Shown: piece after piece, positions 9,070 through 33,354 of the stretch
Position numbering within the stretch: position 1 is the stretch's first letter
Layout: each line of letters starts with the position of its first letter
DNA from: Pseudohongiellaceae bacterium
GTDB taxonomy: Bacteria; Pseudomonadota; Gammaproteobacteria; Pseudomonadales; Pseudohongiellaceae
NCBI GenBank assembly: GCA_965661005.1
Contig: CBFICB010000004.1
Span: 62,879-126,878, forward strand
DNA: 64,000 bases
Direction: 5' to 3'
Notes under the pieces: model-generated
Told to the model about the DNA's origin: nothing
What the model saw: the letters and a program-made list of their open reading frames with translations, nothing else
The model's database searches: none
Made by a program: the position numbers and the translations under genes

Positions 9070-9462
9070 TCAAAATTTTTCACATTGTAGTGTTTCTAAA
9101 TATATGGAATTTTTATGGTTTAAATTGGGATCTTGATAAATCCCTCCAAAAAATCGGATCAATTCAGCTGTAGATAAGTTTTTATTGAGCTCTAAAGAAG
9201 CAGCATCGTTAGAGCAACTCCATGACCAGGTTTTTGATTGGCACTGCATATTCAAAAGAGCGGGGTCGTTGTTCTCAGATATCACAGCTGTTGAACTCTG
9301 TAGCTCAATTCTATAAATTCTAGTGCCAAATTCTTCGGGTTCCCAGTTATTACCTGACCAGAGTAAGCCTCCAGCGGCGGTTCCTTCACATGACCAAAAT
9401 TCGACTTCTTCTGCAGCAAAAGCGAGAGGGCTTAGTAAATAAAGAAGGAGTAATTTACGCAT
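9070..9462 (-). CDS. hypothetical secreted Cys-containing protein (130 aa)
   Basis: Clear Sec signal peptide (MRKLLLLYLLSPLAFA-AEE). The mature part has five Cys. No family recognised. Confidence 0.6.
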   Translation of the reverse strand: MRKLLLLYLLSPLAFAAEEVEFWSCEGTAAGGLLWSGNNWEPEEFGTRIYRIELQSSTAVISENNDPALLNMQCQSKTWSWSCSNDAASLELNKNLSTAELIRFFGGIYQDPNLNHKNSIYLETLQCEKF

Positions 9463-9719: not shown

Positions 9720-10772
9720 CTAGTTTTCATATGTCTGTTCAAGGCACTCATATGGATTCACTTGACGATAGGGTAACCAGACGAAATATTTGGTTAGGTC
9801 AAAAGTTTCAGTGTAATAAACTGGATCAGTCACAGTCAGGCGATAATCCATGCGCTCATAATCGGCTGAAGGCATAAATCTTTCAACAACAGTGATTTGA
9901 TCGCTTTGCGGTTCCCCCGTCCAACCAAAATAGCCGGCGCTGATATGATCCGTTTCGACGACCAGAGTACTTCCTTCCCAATGACCGCGGGAAAAACCAA
10001 ACATCGTGTGCTCTTCAGGTGCTACGGCATCAGGATTCATATGAATAGTCCGCATGGCATCATATTCTTCCATATGTAATTCGATGGTGTCTTCGACTTG
10101 AGTGAACTCTACAGGGAAAGGAGTCATCATGATCAGTGGAGTGCCTTTGGTGCCGCAGGCTAGTAGATCGTTATCCCATGGATCCCATTGTGCCAGGAAG
10201 GCTTCACCATCTTCGTTGAGAGGGTAGCCACCTCTGAACATAGGAAAGGCTTCCGGGTCATTCATAATGGTGCTCCAGGTGCGGAAAATACCATCAGCTG
10301 ACGCCATGGCAGCGTCAATATCAACACCTGAGTTTTCAGCATCGACATAGCCAATTAAATTTCCTGCTTTTCCGGCTGAGAAATAGGGCCTTCCTGTACC
10401 GAAATCAAACTCATAACCAGTGGGTAATAAAACGTTGCTGGCTAGAATCTCAGGTCGATTAAGTTTGGAAGGGGAGCCTGCCATGGTTATGGTGTCACCA
10501 ACCTTGATTTCATCGCCTTCAACACCACGATTTCGCATGACGCTATAGGATATAGTTTCAGCACGCCAAAGCCGGGAATCCCCGGATTCATCCTCTACTC
10601 TAAAAAGAATATAGCCGTGCGGGTTGCGCCAGGACACCTGTTCTATGACCCCCGTGACTTCGATGGTCTGGTCTCCATCAAATAAAGCAACAGTAGAGTG
10701 GTGAGCGAAAGTTGTACCGGTAAAAAGAACAAAAGAAAAAAGGACGGCAACAAGTGTTAAAAAACGAGGCAT
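9720..10772 (-). CDS. secreted two-domain protein: N-terminal DUF6152-like domain fused to a domain paralogous to the 27509-28303 and 29341-30234 proteins
   Basis: Signal peptide ending TFA-HHS. The pattern HHS..FD....EVTGV...V.WRNPH......V......W..E matches my memory of DUF6152. The C-terminal half has RTIHM...GFSRGHWEGSTLVVET...GEPQSDQITVVERF...LTVTDPVYYTETF. GGAG lies 8 nt before the ATG. Confidence 0.8.
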   Translation of the reverse strand: MPRFLTLVAVLFSFVLFTGTTFAHHSTVALFDGDQTIEVTGVIEQVSWRNPHGYILFRVEDESGDSRLWRAETISYSVMRNRGVEGDEIKVGDTITMAGSPSKLNRPEILASNVLLPTGYEFDFGTGRPYFSAGKAGNLIGYVDAENSGVDIDAAMASADGIFRTWSTIMNDPEAFPMFRGGYPLNEDGEAFLAQWDPWDNDLLACGTKGTPLIMMTPFPVEFTQVEDTIELHMEEYDAMRTIHMNPDAVAPEEHTMFGFSRGHWEGSTLVVETDHISAGYFGWTGEPQSDQITVVERFMPSADYERMDYRLTVTDPVYYTETFDLTKYFVWLPYRQVNPYECLEQTYEN

Positions 10773-10874: not shown

Positions 10875-13712
10875 TCAATTCGTTTGCATAGAGGCTTTAG
10901 TTTGTTTTGCCTGATAATCCAGATAATGTTGCTGCCATTCTGAAATGTGATCGGTTAGTTCACATTGAACAGCAGTGACCTTATATTCGGGGCAACTTGT
11001 TGCCCAATCGCTATATTCCGTTGTGACAATATTGGCGCCAGAAAAAGGCATATGAAAAGTTGTATAAACCACGCCGGGTTGCATGCGTTGTGATATCAAT
11101 GCATGTAAGGAGGTTTCACCTTTTCGACTTTTCAACATAATCAGATCCCCATTTTTAATGCCGCGCTCAGCGGCATCATAGGGATGAATTTCCAGAATAT
11201 CTTCAGGGTGCCAGACATTATTGTCGGTGCGGCGTGTTTGTGCGCCGACATTATATTGGCTGAGTATCCTGCCGGTGGTTAATAGCAATGGAAATTTTGG
11301 GCTAACCTTCTCTTCGGTGGGTATGAACTCTGTAATTTCAAATGCTCCCAAACCACGTACAAACTTATCAATATGCATAATGGGAGTGCCGTTCGGCGCC
11401 TCATCATTACAGGGCCATTGTACACTGCCATCCCGGTCGAGCTTGTCAAAACTGACACCTGCAAAAGTCGGTGTCAGGCGTGCAATTTCATCCATGATCT
11501 CTGATGAATCATTGTAGTGCATGGGGTAACCCATGGCCTGAGCGATTTCCATGGTAATTTGCCATTCATGTTTTCCTGTGCGTGGCTTGATCGCTGGTCT
11601 GACCCGGCCTAGACGGCGTTCGGCATTAGTGAAGGTGCCATTTTTTTCCAGAAAAGAGGTCCCCGGCAGAAAAACATGTGCGTATTTTGAGGTTTCATTT
11701 AGAAATAAATCCTGTACCAGAAGGCAGTCAAGATTGCGTAAGGCAGCTTCGACATGATGAATATCAGGGTCAGATTGCGCGACGTCTTCACCTTGTATGT
11801 ACATGCCTTTGAAAGAACCTCCAACGGCTTCATTAAACATGTTAGGAATTCGGTAACCGGGTTCATTATCCAGTCTAATACCCCAGTCTTTTTCGAAGCT
11901 TTGCCGAGTCGGGTCATCACTGACCGGTCGGTAACCCGGTAATTCATGAGGGAATGAGCCCATATCACAGGAGCCTTGCACATTATTTTGCCCCCTCAAG
12001 GGATTAACCCCACAGCCATTAAAGCCCAGATTGCCGGTGAGCATAGCCAGATTAGCCATGCCCATTACCATGGTGGAACCTTGTGAATGCTCGGTAACAC
12101 CCAAGCCATAATAAATAGCAGCTCGTTCAGCACTGGCATAAAGTCGGGCTGATTTGCGAAGAATTTCAGCCTCTACACCTAGTACTTTTGAGACAAATTC
12201 AGGGGCGTTCTGTTTCTGTTTAATAAAATCCAGCCATTGTTCAAATAAAGCTTTGTCACAGCGTTGATTAACATAATTCCAATCAACCAGGTTTTCCTCA
12301 ACAATGGTGTAAGCGAAGGCATTGATTAGTGCTACATTCGTGCCGGGCAAAATAGCCAAGTGAGCAGCAGCTTTAATATGCGGACTTTCAACCAAGTCTA
12401 TACGACGAGGGTCTACAACGATAATTTGCGCACCTTCACGCAACCTTTTTTTAATTCTGGAGGCAAATACAGGGTGCGCATCAGTTGGATTCGCCCCAAT
12501 AAGTAAAATGACGTCAGTACTTTCAACGCTGATAAAATCTTGAGTGCCTGCGGAAGTGCCAAGTGTCTTATTTAAACCAAAGCCGGTAGGGGAATGACAA
12601 ACACGGGCGCAGGTATCAATATTATTATTTTCGAACGCAGCTCGGATCAGTTTTTGTACAACATACACTTCTTCATTGGTTGCGCGTGATGAGGAAATTC
12701 CTCCGATAGACTTGCGTCCATATTCTTGTTGAAGTTCTTTAAATCTTTTGGCAGCAAATTGAATGGCTTCTTCCCAGCTCACTTCCTGCCAGGGGTCCTC
12801 AATGGATGCCCTGAGCATTGGCTTCAATATACGTTCTTTATGACTGGCATAACCCCATGCAAAACGCCCCTTAACGCAAGCATGGCCCTCGTTCGCTTTG
12901 CCGGTTTTAGCCGGTACCATTCTGACAACTTGATCTCCTTTCATTTCAGCATTAAAGGTGCAACCGACTCCGCAATAAGCACAGGTAGTTTCAATGCTAT
13001 GTTCGGGTACACCATGATCAATGACGGATTTTTCCATTAATGTTGCAGTGGGACAGGCTTGCACACAGGCGCCGCAAGAAACACACTCTGAGTTTAGAAA
13101 ATTATTTTCAATACCGGCACTAACATGAGATTCGAAACCGCGTTTACTGATAGTGAGCGCAAAAGTTCCCTGCACTTCATCACAGGCTCTAACGCAACGT
13201 GAACAAACAATGCACTTGCTGGGATCGAATGAAAAGTAGGGGTTAGAGTTATCCAATTCAGCGCTAAGGTGATTTTTGCCTTCATAGCCATAACGCACAT
13301 TCCTTAAGCCAACAGTGCCAGCCATATCCTGTAATTCGCAATCACCATTAGCGCTACAGGTTAAGCAATCCAGTGGGTGATCGGATATATACAGTTCCAT
13401 CACTCCTTTTCGTAATTTTGCCAGTTTCTGGCTTTGCGTATGTACTACCATTCCAGCCTCGACAGGTGTTGTGCATGAGGCCGGGGTGCCACGTCGCCCT
13501 TCAACTTCTACAAGACATAAACGACAGGAACCAAAGGCCTCGAGGCTATCAGTTGCACAAAGTTTGGGTATGCTCGTGCCTAGCTGTTTGGCTGCACGCA
13601 TGATGCTGGTATCTTTAGGCACTACGACCTGATGGCCATCAATTTCCAGGCTGACTAAATCCTGATTTAGGGATTCAGGAGTTCCATAATCGATGTCACT
13701 TTTTAGACTCAT
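10875..13712 (-). CDS. fdsA: NAD-dependent formate dehydrogenase, molybdopterin-containing alpha subunit (FdsA type, Cys ligand)
   Basis: 945 aa. NuoG-like N-terminus with 2Fe-2S and 4Fe-4S Cys clusters (CRLCLVEV, CIVCSRCVRAC, CVSCGACVQACP), a bis-MGD domain with DTCARVCHSPT, and no in-frame TGA. Confidence 0.9.
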   Translation of the reverse strand: MSLKSDIDYGTPESLNQDLVSLEIDGHQVVVPKDTSIMRAAKQLGTSIPKLCATDSLEAFGSCRLCLVEVEGRRGTPASCTTPVEAGMVVHTQSQKLAKLRKGVMELYISDHPLDCLTCSANGDCELQDMAGTVGLRNVRYGYEGKNHLSAELDNSNPYFSFDPSKCIVCSRCVRACDEVQGTFALTISKRGFESHVSAGIENNFLNSECVSCGACVQACPTATLMEKSVIDHGVPEHSIETTCAYCGVGCTFNAEMKGDQVVRMVPAKTGKANEGHACVKGRFAWGYASHKERILKPMLRASIEDPWQEVSWEEAIQFAAKRFKELQQEYGRKSIGGISSSRATNEEVYVVQKLIRAAFENNNIDTCARVCHSPTGFGLNKTLGTSAGTQDFISVESTDVILLIGANPTDAHPVFASRIKKRLREGAQIIVVDPRRIDLVESPHIKAAAHLAILPGTNVALINAFAYTIVEENLVDWNYVNQRCDKALFEQWLDFIKQKQNAPEFVSKVLGVEAEILRKSARLYASAERAAIYYGLGVTEHSQGSTMVMGMANLAMLTGNLGFNGCGVNPLRGQNNVQGSCDMGSFPHELPGYRPVSDDPTRQSFEKDWGIRLDNEPGYRIPNMFNEAVGGSFKGMYIQGEDVAQSDPDIHHVEAALRNLDCLLVQDLFLNETSKYAHVFLPGTSFLEKNGTFTNAERRLGRVRPAIKPRTGKHEWQITMEIAQAMGYPMHYNDSSEIMDEIARLTPTFAGVSFDKLDRDGSVQWPCNDEAPNGTPIMHIDKFVRGLGAFEITEFIPTEEKVSPKFPLLLTTGRILSQYNVGAQTRRTDNNVWHPEDILEIHPYDAAERGIKNGDLIMLKSRKGETSLHALISQRMQPGVVYTTFHMPFSGANIVTTEYSDWATSCPEYKVTAVQCELTDHISEWQQHYLDYQAKQTKASMQTN

Positions 13713-15279
13713 TAGGCCGCCTCATTTTTTCAGTTTCATCAGTTTGCTGAATGAATAATTGATGCAGTTTGACGGCGCTACGCACCGGCATTGGTGTTAA
13801 TCCACCCATTGCGCAAAGTGAAGCATCTTCGAGTGTTTCACAAAGATCTTCAAGCAATTCATAGTGCTCAGTACTTTCCGCCTGATTTTGGCTAGTGCGA
13901 ATTCGATCAATTACCTCTATGCCCCGAACTGAGCCTATTCTGCAGGGAGTGCATTTTCCACAGGATTCAATAGAACAGAATTCCATGGCAAATCGAGCCT
14001 GCTGCAGATAATCAACACTATTATCAAACACCACAACACCCCCATGCCCGAGCATGCCGCCGGCTGTAACAAAGCTTTCATAGTCCAGACTCGTATCAAG
14101 CTGGTCACCTGAAAAATAGGCGCCTAAAGGTCCTCCGACCTGAGCCGCAGTAAGTGGATTGCCTGTATTAGTGCCGCCACCAAAATCGTTTATCAGTTGT
14201 CGAAGCGTCATACCAAAGGGAATTTCTACCAAACCGCCATGTTTAATATTGCCACTGAGCTGAAAAGGCATAGTGCCTAATGATTTATTCTGACCAAAAT
14301 TGGCATAATATTCAGCTCCTTTGGAAAGAATGATGGGGACAGAAGCTAAAGTGATGACATTGTTGACTACTGTTGGCTTTCCAAAAAGCCCCTTAATAGC
14401 CGGCAGTGGTGGTTTAAATCTGATTTGTCCGCGCTTGCCTTCAAGGCTTTCCAGTAGCGAAGTTTCTTCACCGCAAATATAGGCTCCAGCGCCAATGTGT
14501 ATGCGTATATCAAAATTATAATTACTGCCTTTAATTTTATTACCGAGATAACCGGCTTCTCTGGCCTTTAATATGGCTTCTTCAAGGATGACTTTTGTTA
14601 ATGGATATTCAGAACGCAAATAAATAACACCAAGCTCTGCTTCCACGGCAATTCCTGAGATTACCATGCCTTCTATCAGGCAATAGGGATCACCCTCCAT
14701 CAGTAAGCGATCAGAAAAAGTACCGCTATCACCTTCGTCGGCATTGCATACAATGTATTTGCAGTTATCGTCAGCATTAGCCACTGTCTGCCATTTTATG
14801 CCAGCAGGAAAAGCTGCGCCGCCACGCCCCCTTAGGCCTGAATTCAAAAGAGTTTTTATAATATCGCCAGGTTTGGTTTTAAGCGCTTTCGTTAATCCAT
14901 CAAAGCCCCCGTGTTGAATATAGCCGTCCAGGGAAAGTGACTCTATATGGCCACAACGTGAAAAGGTTAAGCGTTTTTGTTGCTTGAACCAGGGAATGCC
15001 AGAGATTTCTCCAAGCTTGAGTTCGTGCTCTCCGGCATTTAAAAAATCTGCATCAAACAAACTTGTAATCAAGGATAGAGAGACTGGACCATAGGCTATG
15101 CGCTTACCCTTGTATTCAACTTCTAGCAGAGGCTCTAGCCACGATGCGCCGCGTGAACCATTTCTAAGGATTTGTAATGAAATTTTACGTTGAGAGGCTT
15201 CTCTCTCAATTGCGCTTATTATTTCTTCAACACCTAAGGAAAGAGCAGTGGTTTCTCTAGGCAGATAAATTTTAGTCAT
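13696..15279 (-). CDS. fdsB: formate dehydrogenase beta subunit (NuoF-like FMN/NAD/4Fe-4S subunit)
   Basis: 527 aa. GLRGRGGAAFPAG FMN/NAD motif and ESCGKCTPCR 4Fe-4S motif. It overlaps fdsA by 17 nt and fdsG by 8 nt. Confidence 0.88.
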   Translation of the reverse strand: MTKIYLPRETTALSLGVEEIISAIEREASQRKISLQILRNGSRGASWLEPLLEVEYKGKRIAYGPVSLSLITSLFDADFLNAGEHELKLGEISGIPWFKQQKRLTFSRCGHIESLSLDGYIQHGGFDGLTKALKTKPGDIIKTLLNSGLRGRGGAAFPAGIKWQTVANADDNCKYIVCNADEGDSGTFSDRLLMEGDPYCLIEGMVISGIAVEAELGVIYLRSEYPLTKVILEEAILKAREAGYLGNKIKGSNYNFDIRIHIGAGAYICGEETSLLESLEGKRGQIRFKPPLPAIKGLFGKPTVVNNVITLASVPIILSKGAEYYANFGQNKSLGTMPFQLSGNIKHGGLVEIPFGMTLRQLINDFGGGTNTGNPLTAAQVGGPLGAYFSGDQLDTSLDYESFVTAGGMLGHGGVVVFDNSVDYLQQARFAMEFCSIESCGKCTPCRIGSVRGIEVIDRIRTSQNQAESTEHYELLEDLCETLEDASLCAMGGLTPMPVRSAVKLHQLFIQQTDETEKMRRPNESKK

Positions 15280-15784
15280 TCTTAGCTTCCTTAAGATTCT
15301 GCAGAAGCAGTTTTAATTTTTCGCTGTTAAGGCGGCTAATGATGTTGGAATTAATCATGAGATTAGGCGAGCAAGAACAGTTCCCCAGGCAATAAACAGG
15401 CTCTAGAGTAATATCAGCAATTTCATTAGTTTGATGAAAATCAATCTCCAGTGCTGCTTTAAGCTCAGCAGTTAATTTTCTTGACCCCATAGCCTGACAG
15501 GATTCCGCCTGGCAAATTTTTAATACATATGAAGCTGGCTTGCTGTCTCTAAAGTCACGATAAAAACTGATAACGCCGTGGACTTCTGTTTTAGATAAAT
15601 TGAAAAATTTTGCTAATAGAGGGATTAGCTCTTTGTCTATATAACCAAAGCTAGCTTGAAAAAAATGAAGAACATCTATCAGGTTGTCATCTTCGATATC
15701 AAAGTTTTTTAAGTAAGCCTGAGCCAGTTCCAAGTTCCAGTCTTCATAGCTGTTTTTAGGGATGTTATTAGCAAAATCTGACAC
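15272..15784 (-). CDS. fdsG: formate dehydrogenase gamma subunit (NuoE-like 2Fe-2S subunit)
   Basis: 170 aa, GTG start. The CQAESCQAMG...CLGNCSCSP cysteine pattern is typical of NuoE/FdsG. Confidence 0.8.
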   Translation of the reverse strand: MSDFANNIPKNSYEDWNLELAQAYLKNFDIEDDNLIDVLHFFQASFGYIDKELIPLLAKFFNLSKTEVHGVISFYRDFRDSKPASYVLKICQAESCQAMGSRKLTAELKAALEIDFHQTNEIADITLEPVYCLGNCSCSPNLMINSNIISRLNSEKLKLLLQNLKEAKND

Positions 15785-26013: not shown

Positions 26014-27402
26014 ATGAAATATATAAGCACTCGCGGGCAATGCGAACCACAGAGTTTTGAGGAAGTTGTTCTAACTGGCTTGGCGCCAGATGGAGGACTG
26101 TTTATTCCTGATACAGTTCCTCAGCTTAGCCATGAGCAAATTTTAAGCTGGAAAAACCTCAGTTATGCTGATCTTGCCTATGAAGTAATTCGTCTATATG
26201 TCGATGGGGCAATAGAGGATGAGGTGCTAAAACAGATGGTGGCAGAAACCTATGCCGAATTTGATCATTCAGAAGTGGCACCATTACATGCCTTAAACAA
26301 TAACGAGTGGGTGTTGGAATTATTTCATGGGCCGACATTGGCTTTTAAAGATTTTGCCTTGCAATTGCTTGGTCGCTTACTGGATTATTTTTTACAAAAA
26401 CGTCAGCAGCATGTTGCCATCTTAGGCGCGACCTCTGGCGATACGGGTTCTGCTGCTTTGGAAGGTTGCAAGCATTCAGAATTTGTCGATATTTTCATAT
26501 TACATCCACATAACAGAGTGTCCGAAGTCCAACGTAAGCAAATGACGACGGTCCTTGGCGATAATGTTCATAACATAGCAATTGCCGGTAATTTTGACGA
26601 TTGCCAGCAAATTGTGAAACAGGCATTTTCAGATCAAAGCTTTTTGCCGGATGGTTATCAGCTAGTCGCAGTAAATTCTATAAACTGGGCAAGAATCATG
26701 GCGCAGATTGTGTATTATTTTTATGCTGCCTTGAAATTTATTGATCACAATGAGACGGTTTCTTTTTCTGTGCCTACTGGAAATTTTGGTGACATTTACG
26801 CTGGTTATCTGGCTAAAAAGATGGGCTTACCAATTAAACAGCTAATCATTGCCACTAATAAAAACGATATCCTTCATCGCTTTATCAGTAAGAATCAGTA
26901 CAACTTAAGTGGTCTGGAAGCTAGTCTTTCTCCAAGTATGGACATCATGGTGTCAAGTAATTTTGAGCGATTTCTTTTTGATATGTTTAAGGGCGATGCT
27001 GAAAAAGTCACCAACTTTGTTACTGGTTTAAGCAGCGATATAGAGAAAGTTTCTAAAGACGAGTGGGAGTTTGCCAAAGCTATTTTTGATTCTGCAAGCG
27101 TTGATGATGAAACAACCTGCTCAGTGATTAGAGAGGTTTTTGACAGCCAGGGGTATTTACTCGACCCACATACTGCTATTGGCCTTAAAGCCGCACAGCT
27201 TTGCAAGAACGACGATGTAACACCAATGATAGCCTTGGCTACAGCGCATCCGGTTAAGTTTTCCGAGGCCATCACCAAAGCAGGTTTGGCAATGCCAGCT
27301 TTGCCTCAGCACTTGAGTGATTTATTAGAGCGTGAGGAAAATTACGCCGTTATGCCAAATGCACTCTCAGAAGTTGAAAGCTACATTAAGCAAAGCTTGT
27401 AA
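26014..27402 (+). CDS. thrC: threonine synthase
   Basis: MKYISTRG N-terminus and FHGPTLAFKDFA containing the PLP lysine. 462 aa. Confidence 0.95.
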   Translation: MKYISTRGQCEPQSFEEVVLTGLAPDGGLFIPDTVPQLSHEQILSWKNLSYADLAYEVIRLYVDGAIEDEVLKQMVAETYAEFDHSEVAPLHALNNNEWVLELFHGPTLAFKDFALQLLGRLLDYFLQKRQQHVAILGATSGDTGSAALEGCKHSEFVDIFILHPHNRVSEVQRKQMTTVLGDNVHNIAIAGNFDDCQQIVKQAFSDQSFLPDGYQLVAVNSINWARIMAQIVYYFYAALKFIDHNETVSFSVPTGNFGDIYAGYLAKKMGLPIKQLIIATNKNDILHRFISKNQYNLSGLEASLSPSMDIMVSSNFERFLFDMFKGDAEKVTNFVTGLSSDIEKVSKDEWEFAKAIFDSASVDDETTCSVIREVFDSQGYLLDPHTAIGLKAAQLCKNDDVTPMIALATAHPVKFSEAITKAGLAMPALPQHLSDLLEREENYAVMPNALSEVESYIKQSL

Positions 27403-27433
27403 AAGATTTTAAGAGTATAGAAGGATAAAACTA

Positions 27434-27472
27434 AAACGGCTCTCTTAAAAACCTCCAGAAAGCCGTTTTTGG
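27434..27472 (+). terminator. possible terminator after thrC
   Basis: AAACGGCT ... AGCCGTTT stem with a roughly 19-nt loop followed by TTTTT. The large loop lowers confidence. Confidence 0.4.
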
Positions 27473-27508
27473 TTTGCTGATTAATATAAAAACAGCTTAA
27501 GGGTTTGT

Positions 27509-28303
27509 TTACCAACCTGGGTTAGTGACAAAACAGTCCTGAGGATTCCATTTAGAATCATCAGTTTCTTTTTTAAAGTTTCTGCTAACCACATAAGGTT
27601 GATTCAGATAAACCGGGTCATCAACAATGACAACATCAATCAGCCATGTGCTGCCATCAGCAATCTCGATCACATCAAAATACTCGGTGACCGTCGTCTG
27701 GTCACTGTGAGGAATTCCGTTTTTGCGTAAGTAACCGGGTATAAGGTTTGTTGTAAATGCTTCCATGGAGCTAGGTGGTTGGTTAACCATGTTCATTCCT
27801 AGACCAAATTGTCTAGGGCTTGGGTCAGATGGGCCAGCCCATCTGGCAATTGTGTGTCCTTGTCTTGAAGGCGAACCAGTGGGCTCTGAATCATCAAAAT
27901 GAAAGTATCGGGTTTGCATGCCGGAATCGATTTCCATTTTTAAAGTAAGATCATCCTCCCAGCTGATTCTTAATCGTGAAGGCTCACTCATGATGGCTGC
28001 AGCGCCGTAGGCTCTGCATTCGTTGCCTTCATCCATTTCGGGGCGCCAGGCCATGGCGATCTCTTTTGCGGCCTGGTTTTCCGGAATGCTGGAGGTATCA
28101 CCAATTAGAGGTGTAACCATGCGTGTTGGCCAGTCTTCTGTAATGATAGAAACCCATGTGCCGGTCAAATCTATAGGGGCGCTTTCTCTTCCCTGAATAA
28201 CGTCCGGTCCTTGTGGTATTGGTATGAATTGCGCAGTAGTTATGCTATTCAGGCCAAATAAAGTGATTGATAGTATGCAAATGCGTTGTATAAAAGTCTT
28301 CAT
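27509..28303 (-). CDS. secreted protein of unknown function (264 aa), paralogue of the 29341-30234 protein and of the C-terminal domain of the 9720-10772 protein
   Basis: Signal peptide (...NSITTA-QF). Shared motifs DLTGTW..I.ED, IPGYLRKNGIPHSDQTTVTEYF and VDDPVYLNQPY. It starts 11 nt after the upstream MBL gene. Confidence 0.8.
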   Translation of the reverse strand: MKTFIQRICILSITLFGLNSITTAQFIPIPQGPDVIQGRESAPIDLTGTWVSIITEDWPTRMVTPLIGDTSSIPENQAAKEIAMAWRPEMDEGNECRAYGAAAIMSEPSRLRISWEDDLTLKMEIDSGMQTRYFHFDDSEPTGSPSRQGHTIARWAGPSDPSPRQFGLGMNMVNQPPSSMEAFTTNLIPGYLRKNGIPHSDQTTVTEYFDVIEIADGSTWLIDVVIVDDPVYLNQPYVVSRNFKKETDDSKWNPQDCFVTNPGW

Positions 28304-28314
28304 GGTGGAGGTCC

Positions 28315-29298
28315 TTATTCTTGAGTCAGGCTTTGATAAATAGCCGTGATGAATTCTTCATTGCTGGGGCCGCCGCGATGACCGCCATATTCCGTGTCGT
28401 AATCGAAGCTTGGATCTGCCGCCAGCACTTGTCGGAGGCTCATGTTTCTATCGATCATGTCTTGAATGCGATCTCTAATTATATAAATCATATTACGGTA
28501 TTCGACGATATCAATTTCGTCTCCGATGCGACCATGTCCTGGTACTACATAGGTCCCAGCTTCAGCGAAGGGCCCTGGTACCATTAATTCAAGCATGAAA
28601 TTCAGAGCATCGATTAGACCATTGACACTGCCGCCGCGCTCAATATCAATATCAGGGTATTGACCAGGGATGTATATATCGCCAGTGCTGATAACATCCG
28701 AGCTTCTGAAATAAACGATACTGTCACCGTCGGTATGAGCATTTGGCATGTGGTATATGATGATACCTTCGCCATTGGCATAAAAATCTTTAGTCTCTGT
28801 GAAGTAGGTTGTCGTCAGGTTAAGGCTAGGGATGTCATGCTCGGTTAAATAAAAACGATTTAACATGTTTTCATGGCCGATTATGGTAACTCCGCCTGCA
28901 GCGCCTCCGGCAACTACAGCACTTGGTCGAGGAGGGCCGAAAGAAAATAAGCCAATGCCAGCTTCGTCTCCCATCGTGCTAATAATGTCATTACCAGAAA
29001 CATGTTGAAAATCCAGTCCAGTGTTAACAATATATCTGGCAGGTCTATCAGAAATCTCGCCAATTAAAGCCATCATTTCAGGGATAAGCTCAGGTGCGGG
29101 GCTATCAACAAAGACTAGAGATTCTTCACCAATCTGAACGGTGACATTCACATTCGCTCCTGAGAGCATGTAAACATTTCCCTGTACATGAAGTAGTTGC
29201 AGATTTTGAGCATGTAAGGCTGAAGAGAAAAGCAGCAAAAGGGCTAAAGGTAAGACCCGAATACTTTTGTATTTAGTAAAAATCTTTTGTACTAACAT
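28315..29298 (-). CDS. secreted metallo-beta-lactamase-fold protein with a degenerate HxHxDH motif
   Basis: Signal peptide (...SSALHA-QN). MBL-like blocks NTGLDFQHVSGN (in place of NTHxHxDHxGGN), HMPNAHTDGDS, TGD and VPGHG. Confidence 0.8.
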   Translation of the reverse strand: MLVQKIFTKYKSIRVLPLALLLLFSSALHAQNLQLLHVQGNVYMLSGANVNVTVQIGEESLVFVDSPAPELIPEMMALIGEISDRPARYIVNTGLDFQHVSGNDIISTMGDEAGIGLFSFGPPRPSAVVAGGAAGGVTIIGHENMLNRFYLTEHDIPSLNLTTTYFTETKDFYANGEGIIIYHMPNAHTDGDSIVYFRSSDVISTGDIYIPGQYPDIDIERGGSVNGLIDALNFMLELMVPGPFAEAGTYVVPGHGRIGDEIDIVEYRNMIYIIRDRIQDMIDRNMSLRQVLAADPSFDYDTEYGGHRGGPSNEEFITAIYQSLTQE

Positions 29299-29340
29299 TG
29301 ATTTACTCCAATGTGTAAAAACAGGTTCAAGGGGGCTAGG

Positions 29341-30234
29341 CTAGGCATCGCAATCTTCATGACTACAAAATTCATTCTCGCCTAGCAGAGGGCCCATTTC
29401 TTCACGAAACTCAGGATACAAAGTTTCAGCCCCGCCGCTGACGCCTGACATCGGTAGATGATAGATTTCAGCAAACTCTTCCAGATAAGGATTCTGATTG
29501 GGCAGATAATTAGGCACTAGATTGTCTGGATTAATAGGGACTTCAATAGTGTATTCACAATTATTAAAGCCGCCACGACGCAAGGGGTCTAGCACAAAAT
29601 CCTGGCTGCGCACCAAAGGCTCTGTTAAAAATACTGGATCATTGATGACAGTGATTACAGTCAGGTATTTTCCGCCATGTAAAAGCCAGTGTTCTGTGAA
29701 AGTACGCTCACTGCTAGCCGGTAAGCCATTTCTTCTCAAATAGCTTTGTTTCAGGTGGGTGGTAGTGATCGTCAGCATGTTGCCTTCAAAGACGCCTGTA
29801 GAGAAGCCTTGAAAAGTATGAGGCGCATCAGCTGGTGGGTGATCGCGACCATCTAGCCAAATTGTACGTTGCATATTGTGAAAGCCCATTCTGGTTTTGA
29901 ATGCGACTGCTTGCTGTGTACGTTCGTCAATTTCTCGTAAAATTCGTAAGTCTGCTAAGCCTCTCATGGCATAATCGCCACCATGTTGACGGCAAATATA
30001 TTCTGTCACGACTGAAATTCGATTAGGGTCATAGCTATGGCCACGCATGAGGGCAGCATCATTAATTGGGATGCCTGAAAAATCACCAAAGGCCGGACCG
30101 GGCAGGCGTTCAATAGCGTCTTCATGAAAGATAGGGCGCCATTCACCAGAAAAGTCGACCTGTTGAGCTGAGGCAAAAGTGCTAAGAAAAATGGAAATGA
30201 TTGCTAGCAGTTTTAGCAGAGTAATACTTTTCAT
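29341..30234 (-). CDS. secreted protein of unknown function (297 aa), paralogue family member
   Basis: Signal peptide (...TFASA-QQ). Motifs DFSGEW..I.ED, RTIWLDGRDHP, GFSTGVFEGNMLTITT, YLRRNGLPASSERTFTEHW and INDPVFLTEP. Confidence 0.8.
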   Translation of the reverse strand: MKSITLLKLLAIISIFLSTFASAQQVDFSGEWRPIFHEDAIERLPGPAFGDFSGIPINDAALMRGHSYDPNRISVVTEYICRQHGGDYAMRGLADLRILREIDERTQQAVAFKTRMGFHNMQRTIWLDGRDHPPADAPHTFQGFSTGVFEGNMLTITTTHLKQSYLRRNGLPASSERTFTEHWLLHGGKYLTVITVINDPVFLTEPLVRSQDFVLDPLRRGGFNNCEYTIEVPINPDNLVPNYLPNQNPYLEEFAEIYHLPMSGVSGGAETLYPEFREEMGPLLGENEFCSHEDCDA

Positions 30235-30399
30235 AATCTCCCCTGTGGGTTTTAGAATTTTATGGTTTCTGGAATTTAACGAGCGCTACACCGCTTTGAA
30301 GAGGTCTGATTGTATGGTTTATTAAAAAATAAATGCAAGCCTTTCCGAGAAATCTTCTTAAGGAGCTGTCATAAAGGCGTAAAAAGATGAGCTAAAAGA

Positions 30400-31485
30400 C
30401 TATAAAGGTTCTGATAGTTCGACTTCAAACGACATTTCATCCTGATTGCGGCGTTTAGTCAGGACTTCAACCAGATCGCCTGGTTGAAATTGCTCGAGTG
30501 CATTTAGGAGGTCGTCATTATTTCTGATAGTCATGCCTTCAATTCCGACTATTACATCGCCCAGGATAATATTGCCACTTTGGTCCTGATTCAGGCCGAT
30601 GAGCCCTGCTTCTGCAGAACCTAGCCCATTAGTTACTTCTGCGACGATAACGCCTTCGATATTATTTCTGGCGCTCACTGCATCGTTCAGGTTTGATATT
30701 CCCAAGATAGGTCTAATTTCTCGACCAAATTCCATTAATTGTGGAATAACCCGTCTGACAGTGTTGACTGGTATCGCAAAGCCAATACCGGCATTGGCGC
30801 CAGATGGGCTGACAATTTGGGTATTGACGCCAACAAGTTGACCAAGTGAATTCAGCAGGGGGCCTCCTGAATTACCTGGGTTGATGGAGGCATCGGTTTG
30901 GATAACATCCCTGATAGTACGATTGGTCAGAGAGGTCATTTCTCTTCCCAGGGCGCTAACTACACCCACGGTAAGAGTGGTATCGAGTCCAAAGGGGTTG
31001 CCTATTGCTATAACCTTGCGACCCACCTGCAGGTCGGCTGAATCGCCCACTGGAAGAGGGCTTAGTATATCTGCAGGGGCATCAATCTTGAGTAAGGCAA
31101 GGTCCTTGTCGGGCGCTACACCAATAATTTCTGCTGCCCAGCTGCTTTGATCCTGAAGCCTGATCATTATTCTATTAGCTCCCTGAACAACATGATAGTT
31201 AGTTACTATCAGTCCTTCTTTGCTCCAAACAAAGCCCGTTCCAGCACCTTGAGGAATTTCTTGGACATTTCTCGTGAAAGGGCTTCTCCTTACCAAAGCC
31301 GTATTGGTAACGTAAACTACCGACGGGCTGGCTTGACTAAAAATCTCTATGTTATTCGCTTCATCCTCGGTCTGAAAACTCAGGTAATCCGGTGCAGCTT
31401 GCGTGATTAGCTGTGTTAAAGCGGCGCTAGCAAGTACTGCGCTTACCAGCAGGAAGTTAATAGTCTTTTTCATAGTAATTTTCAT
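30400..31485 (-). CDS. periplasmic trypsin-like serine protease with one PDZ domain (S1C, DegP/DegS-like)
   Basis: Signal peptide, catalytic triad context TNYHVV / DKDLALLK / GNSGGPL, and a C-terminal PDZ domain. Confidence 0.88.
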   Translation of the reverse strand: MKITMKKTINFLLVSAVLASAALTQLITQAAPDYLSFQTEDEANNIEIFSQASPSVVYVTNTALVRRSPFTRNVQEIPQGAGTGFVWSKEGLIVTNYHVVQGANRIMIRLQDQSSWAAEIIGVAPDKDLALLKIDAPADILSPLPVGDSADLQVGRKVIAIGNPFGLDTTLTVGVVSALGREMTSLTNRTIRDVIQTDASINPGNSGGPLLNSLGQLVGVNTQIVSPSGANAGIGFAIPVNTVRRVIPQLMEFGREIRPILGISNLNDAVSARNNIEGVIVAEVTNGLGSAEAGLIGLNQDQSGNIILGDVIVGIEGMTIRNNDDLLNALEQFQPGDLVEVLTKRRNQDEMSFEVELSEPL

Positions 31486-31722
31486 GGTTATGTACTAGGT
31501 TTATCAATTCAGATGTTTTAAAAGTTTCGAGTTTGCATTTAGGTAAGTTTTATATTCAAAAGTTCCAGCCTGTCTGTTGACAAGCGATGAATTTTATAAA
31601 TTTTCAATTTTGGTTCACATTTACTTTATGTCGAGGTTAGCTAATCGTTTTTCAAGTGTGACTGATTATTAAAGATGAAAAGGTACATAAGTGAAAGATG
31701 GGGAAGTTTTAAAGGTGAGTAG

Positions 31723-33354
31723 TTGTTAGAAGTTACAGGAAATATCATCAGCCATCTTAGTGATGCGTGTAAACAGCATGCTGACAATACAGCCTATACA
31801 CTACTCGGTAGGAATTTAAGTTATCGCGAATTGGATGAATTAAGCGACGATCTGGCTGCTTATCTAATTAAACATACACAACTAGAAACTGGCGATAGAA
31901 TAGCTATACAGCTACCCAATATTCTTCAGTTTCCAATCGCTGCTCTTGCCGTATTTAAAGCAAATATGGTCGTGGTAAGTACCAATCCCGAATATTCAGA
32001 AGACGAACTCAAGCATCAATTAAATGATTCCGGTGCAAAAGCATTAATTGTTTTTTCTGGTTGTGCCAATACCTATCTTAATATTCAGGAGCAAACCAAG
32101 ATTGAAGAAGTCATCATTACCAATATTGCCGATTTGCATCATCCTTTAAAAAGCTCGGTGATTCACACATTGGCACGTGTCGTTGGTGGCTATCGATCTT
32201 GTTTGGAATACCCAAAATTACAGAAATTTAGAAAGGCTTTACGTCTTGGCAGGCAAAAAAAAGAGAGTTGTGATTTAAAACAGGCACATGACAACCATAG
32301 CGACCAAGTGGCCATACTGCAATATACCGGAGGCACAACAGGTATATCCAAAGGCACTATGCTATCTCACCGAAATCTGTTATCAAACTTTTTACAATTG
32401 AAAGCTCAGTTAGGAGATGATTGTCCGGCAACTAAATCAATAGTGGTAGCGCCTTTGCCTCTCTATCATGTATATGCTTTCACCGTGAATATGCTTTTTA
32501 GTCTTATGATGGGTTATCACAATATTTTGATAGCCAATCCAAGATTTATTTCTCTATTCATTAGAGACATTAAGCCTTACAAAATAAATATTTTCTGCGG
32601 AATAAACCCTTTATTTAAAAAACTGTGTGAACATTCGGAGTTTAAGAAACTGGACTTTTCTGAGCTGTTAATTTGTACAACCGGCGGAATGGCTTTGGGT
32701 AAAGATATTGCTGAAGAATGGTATAAAGTGACCGGCTGCAGAATTCTGGAGGGCTATGGTATGACAGAAACATCGCCGCTAGTGGCTTGTAATACTTATG
32801 ATGATTATCAAACCGATAGCATTGGTAAAGCACTTCCCCTTACTCAATTAAAAGTCATTGATCAAGATGGCGTAAGACTCTCTCAGGGAGAAGAGGGTGA
32901 ACTTTGTATTCGTGGTCCACAGGTAATGCAAGGTTATTGGCAGCAACCTGAAGAAACAGCCAAGGTTCTGAACAAGGAAGGTTGGTTAAGAACAGGTGAT
33001 ATCGCTAGCATCGACGCCTTTGGAAATTTAAAAATTATCGACCGTTTAAAAGATATGATCATAGTTTCCGGATTTAATGTTTATCCTGTGGAAATTGAAA
33101 ATGTTGTTAGTACTTATTCGGGGGTAAAGGATGCTGTTGTGATAGGTGTTAAAGATTCTGAGGGCGTTGAACAAGTAAAACTCATAGTTGTTCCTGCTAA
33201 TTCAGCGCTGGATAAAACTGCACTTTTAAATTATTGCAAAAGAAAGTTGGCAGCCTATAAGGTTCCCAAAATCATAGAATTCAGAACTTCATTGCCAAAA
33301 TCAAATGTGGGCAAAGTGTTAAAAAGAGAACTGCAGAATGATTTAACACGATAA
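31723..33354 (+). CDS. fadD: long-chain-fatty-acid--CoA ligase (AMP-dependent synthetase)
   Basis: TTG start preceded by AAGGTGA and an in-frame TAG. Motifs YTGGTTGISKG, GYGMTE, TGD and a C-terminal KVPK...GK. Confidence 0.85.
   Translation: MLEVTGNIISHLSDACKQHADNTAYTLLGRNLSYRELDELSDDLAAYLIKHTQLETGDRIAIQLPNILQFPIAALAVFKANMVVVSTNPEYSEDELKHQLNDSGAKALIVFSGCANTYLNIQEQTKIEEVIITNIADLHHPLKSSVIHTLARVVGGYRSCLEYPKLQKFRKALRLGRQKKESCDLKQAHDNHSDQVAILQYTGGTTGISKGTMLSHRNLLSNFLQLKAQLGDDCPATKSIVVAPLPLYHVYAFTVNMLFSLMMGYHNILIANPRFISLFIRDIKPYKINIFCGINPLFKKLCEHSEFKKLDFSELLICTTGGMALGKDIAEEWYKVTGCRILEGYGMTETSPLVACNTYDDYQTDSIGKALPLTQLKVIDQDGVRLSQGEEGELCIRGPQVMQGYWQQPEETAKVLNKEGWLRTGDIASIDAFGNLKIIDRLKDMIIVSGFNVYPVEIENVVSTYSGVKDAVVIGVKDSEGVEQVKLIVVPANSALDKTALLNYCKRKLAAYKVPKIIEFRTSLPKSNVGKVLKRELQNDLTR

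Follow-up and report, generated by a model that had tools for sequence, protein, structure and literature searches.

A widespread triad of exported proteins places a divergent metallo-β-lactamase fold between two paralogues of a predicted barrel family

Introduction

Three tightly spaced genes for exported proteins in a Pseudohongiellaceae bacterium (assembly GCA_965661005.1, contig CBFICB010000004.1, positions 62,879 to 126,878; this whole stretch of 64,000 nucleotides is hereafter called the window) raise a simple question: do they encode the parts of a single system and, if so, what would that system do? The outer two genes, here called A and B, are paralogues, and between them stands the gene for a metallo-β-lactamase (MBL)-fold protein. 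A preliminary description of this DNA had posited a periplasmic or secreted module, serving for example in the binding and hydrolysis of a hydrophobic or xenobiotic ligand. Here, we show that the triad is a real module, widespread in soil Acidobacteria and marine Gammaproteobacteria, and previously undescribed. The explanation that we favour, with a probability of roughly 0.45, is that one operon supplies a single periplasmic complex, which derives from an ancestral metal hydrolase with two ligand-binding barrels and whose metal site was remodelled in the marine lineage.

Three exported proteins are encoded in one tight cluster

The three genes, all on the minus strand, are as follows:

29341..30234, minus strand: gene A, 297 aa, first of the triad (open reading frame (ORF), family and AlphaFold2 (AF2) model)
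28315..29298, minus strand: gene MBL, 327 aa, exported MBL-fold protein, middle of the triad (ORF and AF2 model)
27509..28303, minus strand: gene B, 264 aa, exported paralogue of A, last of the triad (ORF and BLASTP)

According to the ORF coordinates, 42 nt separate A from MBL and 11 nt separate MBL from B. As read from the sequence, all three products begin with a Sec-type leader, in which positively charged residues precede a hydrophobic core and a small-x-small site follows. Cleavage is predicted between FASA and QQ in A, between ALHA and QN in MBL, and between ITTA and QF in B. Neither a lipobox Cys nor a twin-arginine motif could be read in the leaders of A, MBL or B. Coordinates and Sec leaders agree with the preliminary description.

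Gene order and junctions are conserved across distant phyla

Scanning one genome per species by sequence pattern returned at least 599 stretches, 581 of which encode a relative of A as judged by tblastn. The best 80 of these 581 were fetched with 8-kb flanks and constitute the locus set used below: approximately 65 come from Acidobacteriota (Bryobacteraceae, Vicinamibacterales, Terriglobia), 14 from Gammaproteobacteria/Proteobacteria and one from Acidimicrobiia, and all of the related loci are metagenome-assembled genomes (MAGs). The nearest among them belongs to a SAR86-cluster MAG (L001, 85% identity).

An MBL homologue is encoded in 78 of the 80 loci, and the strict order A-MBL-B recurs in 67, giving 73 triads that often form tandem arrays; a few loci display the rotated order MBL-B-A. 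The recurrent link with an MBL gene envisaged in the preliminary description is thus borne out. In 35/80 pairs the stop codon of MBL overlaps the start codon of B by 4 nt, and in 58/80 the junction lies between -10 and +20 nt, some overlaps being inflated in high-GC loci, where the longest ORF was taken as the start. Such overlapping stop and start codons are consistent with translational coupling. A and MBL also occur fused in these loci, as proteins of about 590-640 aa with their domains in gene order, and 31 of the 150 best representative clusters contain both domains, 21 of them at full length. The 787-aa protein P0311 was considered as an A-MBL-B triple fusion and rejected, its C-terminus not being B. 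Taken together, conserved order, overlapping junctions and fusions form the pattern classically associated with subunits of a single complex.

All three window genes are under strong purifying selection, with ratios of non-synonymous to synonymous substitution (dN/dS) of 0.04-0.06 against L001, values that are approximate given that dS is saturated. Besides A, MBL and B, clustering of the neighbouring ORFs revealed no family reaching 25% of the 80 loci, alternate-frame artefacts aside; the commonest other neighbours are DUF6152 proteins (18-19 loci), pyrroloquinoline quinone (PQQ) dehydrogenases (10), DUF4159 proteins (10) and AMP-binding ligases (7-9).

Within 16 kb, acidobacterial and Steroidobacteraceae loci (L011, L016, L017, L033, L038 and L045) display tandem groups of two or three triads, together with A-MBL fusions and additional copies of A or B, a pattern indicative of strong paralogous expansion. 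L007, from a MAG labelled, doubtfully, as Enterobacteriaceae, is the one locus whose downstream sequence is ample and where A nevertheless has neither MBL nor B beside it; there, DUF6152 and calycin-like genes lie upstream of A.

A and B belong to a large family with a predicted barrel fold

A and B share 28% identity over 212 columns (BLASTP, E 9e-19), and both are homologous to the product of a third gene in the window:

9720..10772, minus strand: third paralogue, unlinked and exported, 350 aa, composed of a DUF6152 domain (mature N-terminus HHS) and a calycin-like domain

BLASTP aligns A (E 3e-11) and B (E 8e-7) with the C-terminal two-thirds of this protein, and a hidden Markov model (HMM) of the A family matches B at 5.9e-21 and the 350-aa protein at 1.7e-14; family HMMs found no copy in the window beyond these three. 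The homology of the three proteins proposed earlier is thereby upheld, as are the motif blocks on which it had been based, all of which are present in both outer proteins. A three-way alignment reveals R43, P56, C81, G85, M90, R123, G143, T158, G170, E181 and D199-P200 (A numbering) as common to all three, together with a second Cys near the C-terminus (C295 in A, C257 in B, C343 in the 350-aa protein). Two shared Cys positions would fit a disulfide in exported proteins, and are consistent with the exported state. B differs from A in having no C-terminal extension and an extra insertion in one hairpin.

Conservation within each subfamily is high, with 36 invariant residues in A across 56 homologues and many in B across the aligned 70 orthologues from triads. 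Arg, His, Asp, Glu and Tyr make up most of these residues. Nothing supports the xenobiotic or specifically hydrophobic ligand suggested before. Neither A nor B matches any Pfam or NCBIfam model, the 56 homologues of A gave nothing consistent in these collections, and sequence and profile searches of the PDB with A returned no match. The family is nonetheless large: a word-indexed search gave 1172 matches to the A type, every one annotated 'hypothetical', and an exhaustive profile search gave 5100, 1861 and 491 clusters (50% identity) at E up to 1e-3, 1e-10 and 1e-30, respectively. A large and uncharacterised family is what the preliminary description had anticipated. One relative, P0333, displays a tannase fragment ahead of its A domain and was treated as a probable gene-calling artefact.

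The AF2 model of A, built from 56 homologues, has a predicted local distance difference test score (pLDDT) of 76.7 and displays a ten-stranded up-and-down barrel, in which strand 1 with its G-x-W motif is followed by a partly helical insertion of 60 residues, then by the other nine strands and, at the C-terminus, by a helical extension. When compared to the PDB with Foldseek, its best match was CRBP1 (E 7.8e-4, probability 1.0, target-normalised template modelling (TM) score 0.58-0.61), and the top 50 matches were almost all FABP or CRBP, with NanoLuc, UnaG and avidin-like barrels also present. The match is weak but consistent, and we read the model of A as a calycin/FABP-like barrel with large decorations; B is predicted to share this fold from its homology to A. 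A barrel-like fold had been suggested beforehand, and the model agrees with it.

The middle protein is a divergent MBL-fold member with an altered metal site

The AF2 model of the middle protein (pLDDT 84.9) gave 529 Foldseek matches in the PDB at E <= 1e-3, and the 50 best listed are all MBL-fold proteins, led by 8d2z (E 7e-16) and followed by the MBL domains of SdsA1 and Pisa1, chlorothalonil dehalogenase Chd and B1/B2 lactamases. Judged by its predicted structure, the protein is clearly a divergent member of the MBL fold, an alpha-beta/beta-alpha sandwich. Its score against Pfam Lactamase_B (PF00753) is 16.1 bits, under the 22.7 cut-off, a threshold that many homologues pass, fusion proteins included, and it falls far under every NCBIfam cut-off. 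The earlier assignment to the MBL fold therefore holds for the fold itself, with the qualification that this is only a divergent member, below the Lactamase_B cut-off.

Canonical members of the family read NTHVHADHTGGN ... AAHTDGDS ... STGDIF ... IPGHGR, and carry the ligand set H116-x-H118-x-D120-H121, H196, D221 and H263. The window protein reads NTGLDFQHVSGN, which aligns to the canonical NTHVHADHTGGN without a gap. Its motif 2 is G94-L-D96-F-Q98-H99 (GLDFQH) as compared to HxHxDH, that is, H116G, H118D and D120Q. It keeps H121 (as H99), H196 (H188), D221 (D207) and H263 (H255); in aligned homologues H188 is invariant, D207 is present in 43/45 and H255 in 38/45.

Metal ligands are lost repeatedly and remodelled in the marine clade

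Ligand classes could be assigned for 70 triads. The canonical site, HxHxDH followed by H, D and H, is found in 38/70, and the remaining 32/70 are non-canonical. The loci contain 17 ORFs of more than 520 aa, namely fusions plus a few over-extended ORFs, and 10 of these are canonical, while fusion proteins in the wider database display mixed ligand motifs. One of the triads that have lost later ligands too, L061, reads S-x-S-x-E-Q with H, A and R at the three later positions. Despite such loss, the framework motifs AHTDGDS, FFRxSDV and PGxGR are near-invariant. The ancestral MBL subunit is most simply read as a binuclear metal-dependent hydrolase, and the ligand series indicates that the function holding the triad together does not always require a binuclear centre.

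Only degenerate copies are present in marine genomes, as in both triads of a single MAG (L003 and L006). Among the 61 closest relatives of the window protein, which form the marine clade, position 116 is H, A or G and D96 is fixed at 98%; H37, Y150 and R308 are likewise fixed and specific to this clade. These clade-specific residues argue for remodelling of the site rather than decay.

A proposed mechanism

We propose that A, MBL and B are co-produced from one operon and would assemble in the periplasm as an obligate heteromer, in which two FABP/calycin-like barrels flank an MBL-fold core. In the canonical forms, found in many Acidobacteria and in A-MBL fusions, the full HxHxDH/H/D/H site would make the core a metal-dependent hydrolase; a small organic substrate would be taken up by the barrels, which would offer its scissile ester-type bond to the binuclear centre. 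Given how many Arg, His and Tyr residues are invariant in the barrels, this substrate probably bears an anionic group (phosphate, sulfate or carboxylate) rather than being a pure lipid.

In the marine clade of the window, the site would be cut to at most D96, H99, H188, D207 and H255, and the MBL subunit may bind just one metal, in a different coordination and with altered chemistry, or may serve as a non-catalytic scaffold. The binding and hydrolysis put forward in the preliminary description presume a working MBL enzyme; given the GLDFQH motif and repeated ligand loss across the family, classical binuclear hydrolysis is doubtful in the window copy.

Comparison with known systems

The best match of the MBL protein by sequence (profile E 2.4e-16) and by structure (E 7e-16, TM 0.63-0.68) is 8d2z, an uncharacterised MBL-superfamily protein of Burkholderia cenocepacia, 327 aa, of similar length, with a C-terminal helical extension and a motif 2 that is also incomplete (HYHAVR). 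The two are only about 16% identical, however, and differ in what is missing: D120 and H121 from 8d2z, H116 and D120 from the window protein. The next-best structural matches, the type III alkylsulfatases SdsA1 and Pisa1 (Foldseek E ~1e-13), resemble the triad in concept, combining an MBL core with a module for the non-polar part of the substrate (SCP-2). They are single chains of 630-660 aa with MBL, dimerisation and SCP-2-like domains and an intact binuclear Zn site, whereas the triad has separate FABP-like subunits and a 327-aa MBL protein that lacks SCP-2 and whose motif 2 is incomplete; the profile match to them is confined to the N-terminal part (E 9e-6).

The B2 lactamases CphA and Sfh-I share an exported MBL fold and a replaced H116, which in their case goes with a mononuclear site, and the profile aligns to them over the first 100 residues. 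Their H118, D120 and C221 are not in the window protein, which scores 18.5 bits against an NCBIfam cut-off of 240, and they act without partner proteins. The best NCBIfam match (E 4.7e-13) is to TIGR04559/TIGR04558, 'quinoprotein relay system zinc metallohydrolase 1/2', SoxH-related periplasmic MBL-fold proteins, but it reaches 49.2 bits against a cut-off of 280 and covers residues 182-292 only, in the C-terminal half. No PQQ dehydrogenase, cytochrome or SoxYZ-like carrier adjoins the window triad. MBL-fold phytases were rejected as relatives, as they belong to the unrelated Lactamase_B_2/ElaC-like family.

On the barrel side, the A model shares with the calycins (FABP/CRBP, lipocalins and avidins) its ten strands, the helical insertion after strand 1 and the first-strand G-x-W. 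Unlike them, A and B are exported, twice the size and tied to an MBL protein; they display conserved Cys residues, no detectable sequence similarity to calycins and an insertion of 60 residues, many of them invariant and charged, to which A adds an 80-residue C-terminal extension. Among the papers searched, there is no mention of the barrel family, and nothing relevant on lipocalin with MBL, SAR86 with MBL, or 8D2Z. No described system is known to pair an MBL-fold protein with two dedicated, paralogous FABP-like subunits, and we regard the triad as a candidate accessory-assisted periplasmic MBL-fold enzyme.

The third paralogue carries DUF6152, a recurrent neighbour of the triad

In the 350-aa paralogue, DUF6152 (PF19649) occupies residues 19-103 (E 2.3e-17, 63.3 bits against a cut-off of 27); A and B do not contain this domain. 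The DUF6152 plus calycin-like architecture is kept in 672 homologues of the 350-aa protein, and a split version, with a DUF6152 gene followed by calycin-like genes, exists alongside the fused one. Among the triad loci, 19/80 contain ORFs with a DUF6152 domain, mostly of about 130 aa, in line with the co-occurrence raised in the preliminary description. They stand directly upstream of A in L002, L011 and L025, and between MBL and B in L017 and L018. Copies include the following:

L002, 4417-4812: DUF6152 copy
L006, 10847-11257: DUF6152 copy
L011, 7518-7910: DUF6152 copy

Stand-alone DUF6152 proteins of Gammaproteobacteria and Acidobacteria are about 65% identical. The invariant residues of the domain are H24, H25 and N50-P51-H52, the NPH lying some 27 residues after the His-His pair, and H24 is the first residue past the predicted signal cleavage. 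This arrangement hints that the N-terminal histidine takes part in a brace-like metal site, in a small domain that is possibly an OB-fold. A profile search of the PDB with DUF6152 gave only sub-significant OB-fold matches, PriB and LytM (E ~0.06-0.07), and a literature search found no work on DUF6152.

Neighbours of the 350-aa family vary, and include an alpha/beta hydrolase, an esterase, a PETase-family protein, an amidase, a PQQ dehydrogenase and DUF4159. In the window, a 130-aa exported Cys- and Trp-rich protein that has no family match is encoded just downstream of the DUF6152-calycin gene (9070-9462, minus strand). An NAD-linked formate dehydrogenase operon (10875-15784, minus strand), comprising a 945-aa alpha subunit (TIGR01591) and NuoF/NuoE-like subunits, ends 102 nt upstream of it. 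Close to triads, PQQ-dependent dehydrogenases, some of them with an N-terminal cytochrome c domain, were seen in 10/80 loci (L052:10638-12764 and nine others), and another lies near a homologue of the 350-aa protein (L085:8462-10351). DUF4159 proteins recur likewise, near triads in 10 loci and, in addition, in L084.

Genomic setting of the window triad

On one flank of the cluster lie dsbC, hom and thrC; on the opposite flank are a DegP/HtrA-like protease gene, fadD and recJ. This confirms its earlier placement among unrelated housekeeping genes. Three further features adjoin it:

30238..30243, minus strand: Shine-Dalgarno-like GGGGAG, 3 nt 5' of the gene A ATG (read from sequence)
27428..27475, minus strand: putative intrinsic terminator, formed by a stable hairpin and the U-rich tract after it, in the gap between the converging B and thrC
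30400..31485, minus strand: DegP/HtrA-like serine protease, 361 aa, 165 nt upstream of A, with an NCBIfam Do-family match below cut-off

The hairpin at 27428..27475 folds with -18.5 kcal/mol (z -3.56; equally stable in 0/200 shuffles) and is a probable intrinsic terminator closing the triad operon; lying between B and thrC, it could stop transcription from both sides. It was found by reading and folding the sequence; a scan for promoters and terminators gave counts no higher than in shuffles. An Rfam scan of 26800-32000 gave zero matches, and the base composition of the triad displays no anomaly and so no sign of horizontal transfer. The protease gene is possibly co-transcribed with the triad; a homologue adjoins the triad in only one of the 80 loci (L002, Pseudohongiellaceae), and it is thus not a conserved partner.

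Divergently upstream of the triad lies a gene for an AMP-binding acyl-CoA ligase, fadD (31723-33354, plus strand), as is also the case in L001 and about eight acidobacterial loci (L024, L028, L034, L044, L050, L058, L066 and L073). We considered this gene as a clue to a fatty-acyl substrate and set it aside as unproven, since the acidobacterial ligases are superfamily-level relatives only and the association may be due to chance.

Weighing the explanations

Several observations weigh against a periplasmic complex descended from a hydrolase. The window MBL protein lacks D120, a residue needed in nearly all MBL hydrolases; position 120 in the marine clade is frequently Leu, Met, Ile or Ala, with Glu and Gln also found there; and about 13 of the 70 triads are also without H196, D221 or H263. 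No column of A or B separates canonical from degenerate triads, and no compensating change was found there, so that the conserved function may not need a metal centre. The Foldseek match of A to FABP is weak, with a query-normalised TM of 0.3, and parts of the model bearing invariant residues have pLDDT below 50; the lowest-confidence segments, 40-48 and 73-86, contain the invariant R43, C81, R82 and H84, and may be loops that become ordered only within a complex. The neighbourhood in the 80 loci, lastly, gives no clue to the substrate.

The chief rival is a non-catalytic binder or shuttle, whose barrels would capture or chaperone a periplasmic small molecule, perhaps carrying it between an outer-membrane receptor and an inner-membrane transporter, with the MBL protein as a scaffold that has repeatedly lost its metal site. 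It accounts for the retention of the MBL framework, A and B in the 32 non-canonical triads, the 13 or so most reduced ones included, for the purely degenerate copies of marine genomes (L003 and L006 in one MAG) and for the strong purifying selection on the window MBL gene. Precedents exist in the inactive MBL-fold partners CPSF-100 and Int9 and in PqsE, whose catalysis is dispensable. Yet the canonical site is perfect in over half of the triads and in most fusions from the loci, and such a site would not persist unless used; nor is any transporter or receptor a steady neighbour, TonB-dependent-receptor-like genes being found near the triad in 5/80 loci only. Such a shuttle is conceivable, although we lean against it. 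We are more doubtful of a broader proposal, in which the conserved activity would reside in a new family of exported FABP-like barrels, the MBL protein would be a recurrent pseudoenzyme scaffold and the barrels would also pair with a possible histidine-brace DUF6152, the whole forming a toolkit of oligotrophic heterotrophs (SAR86-like bacteria and soil Acidobacteria) for dissolved organic matter.

A related alternative is that the barrels are enzymes themselves, or modules that position substrates for different partners (MBL and DUF6152) within an oxidative or hydrolytic toolkit that handles dissolved organic matter outside the cytoplasm. At least 30 polar residues are invariant in each of A and B, the calycin-like domain is fused to DUF6152 in the 672 homologues mentioned above, stand-alone DUF6152 occurs in 19/80 loci and even between MBL and B in L017 and L018, and its H24, H25 and H52 are invariant; homologues of the 350-aa protein, moreover, adjoin alpha/beta hydrolases, esterases, a PETase-family gene and PQQ dehydrogenases. 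These points are offset by the want of a recognisable catalytic motif in A or B, by the variable neighbourhoods of the 350-aa family and by the purely inferential nature of metal binding by DUF6152, for which the sole structural hint is the sub-significant OB-fold match to PriB (E 0.07), and we judge this alternative improbable. Two simpler explanations fare far worse. Were the middle gene an ordinary B2-like metallo-β-lactamase resistance gene with unrelated flanking genes, one could account for the alignment of the family profile with the N-terminal half of Sfh-I and CphA (E 4e-11 to 2e-9) and for weak NCBIfam matches to B1/B2 models, but those matches reach 18 bits against cut-offs of 200-240, the residue set N116/H118/D120/C221/H263 is replaced by G/D/Q/D/H, and strict synteny and barrel fusions are without counterpart among lactamase genes; the chances of this are slight indeed. 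The notion that three unrelated secreted proteins are adjacent by chance or as a local peculiarity draws on nothing other than the want of annotation, and is refuted by the same order in 67/80 loci from three phyla, the 4-nt overlaps and the fusions, leaving it a negligible probability. For practical purposes, a lactamase role and chance adjacency are both excluded, and the remodelled periplasmic complex is the explanation that we retain.

Implications

The barrel family has no representative in Pfam, NCBIfam or the PDB, yet comprises some 5100 clusters at 50% identity. Its carriers are dominant and poorly cultured groups, and soil Acidobacteria often possess several tandem copies of the triad. 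The streamlined SAR86-like marine lineage also keeps it, and genes kept in such lineages tend to matter. With its series of MBL sites from intact to degenerate in an otherwise unchanged trio, the family provides a system in which to follow the transition from enzyme to scaffold. If the substrate were found, it would supply an annotation for thousands of 'hypothetical' genes, and may uncover one step by which environmental organic matter is turned over.

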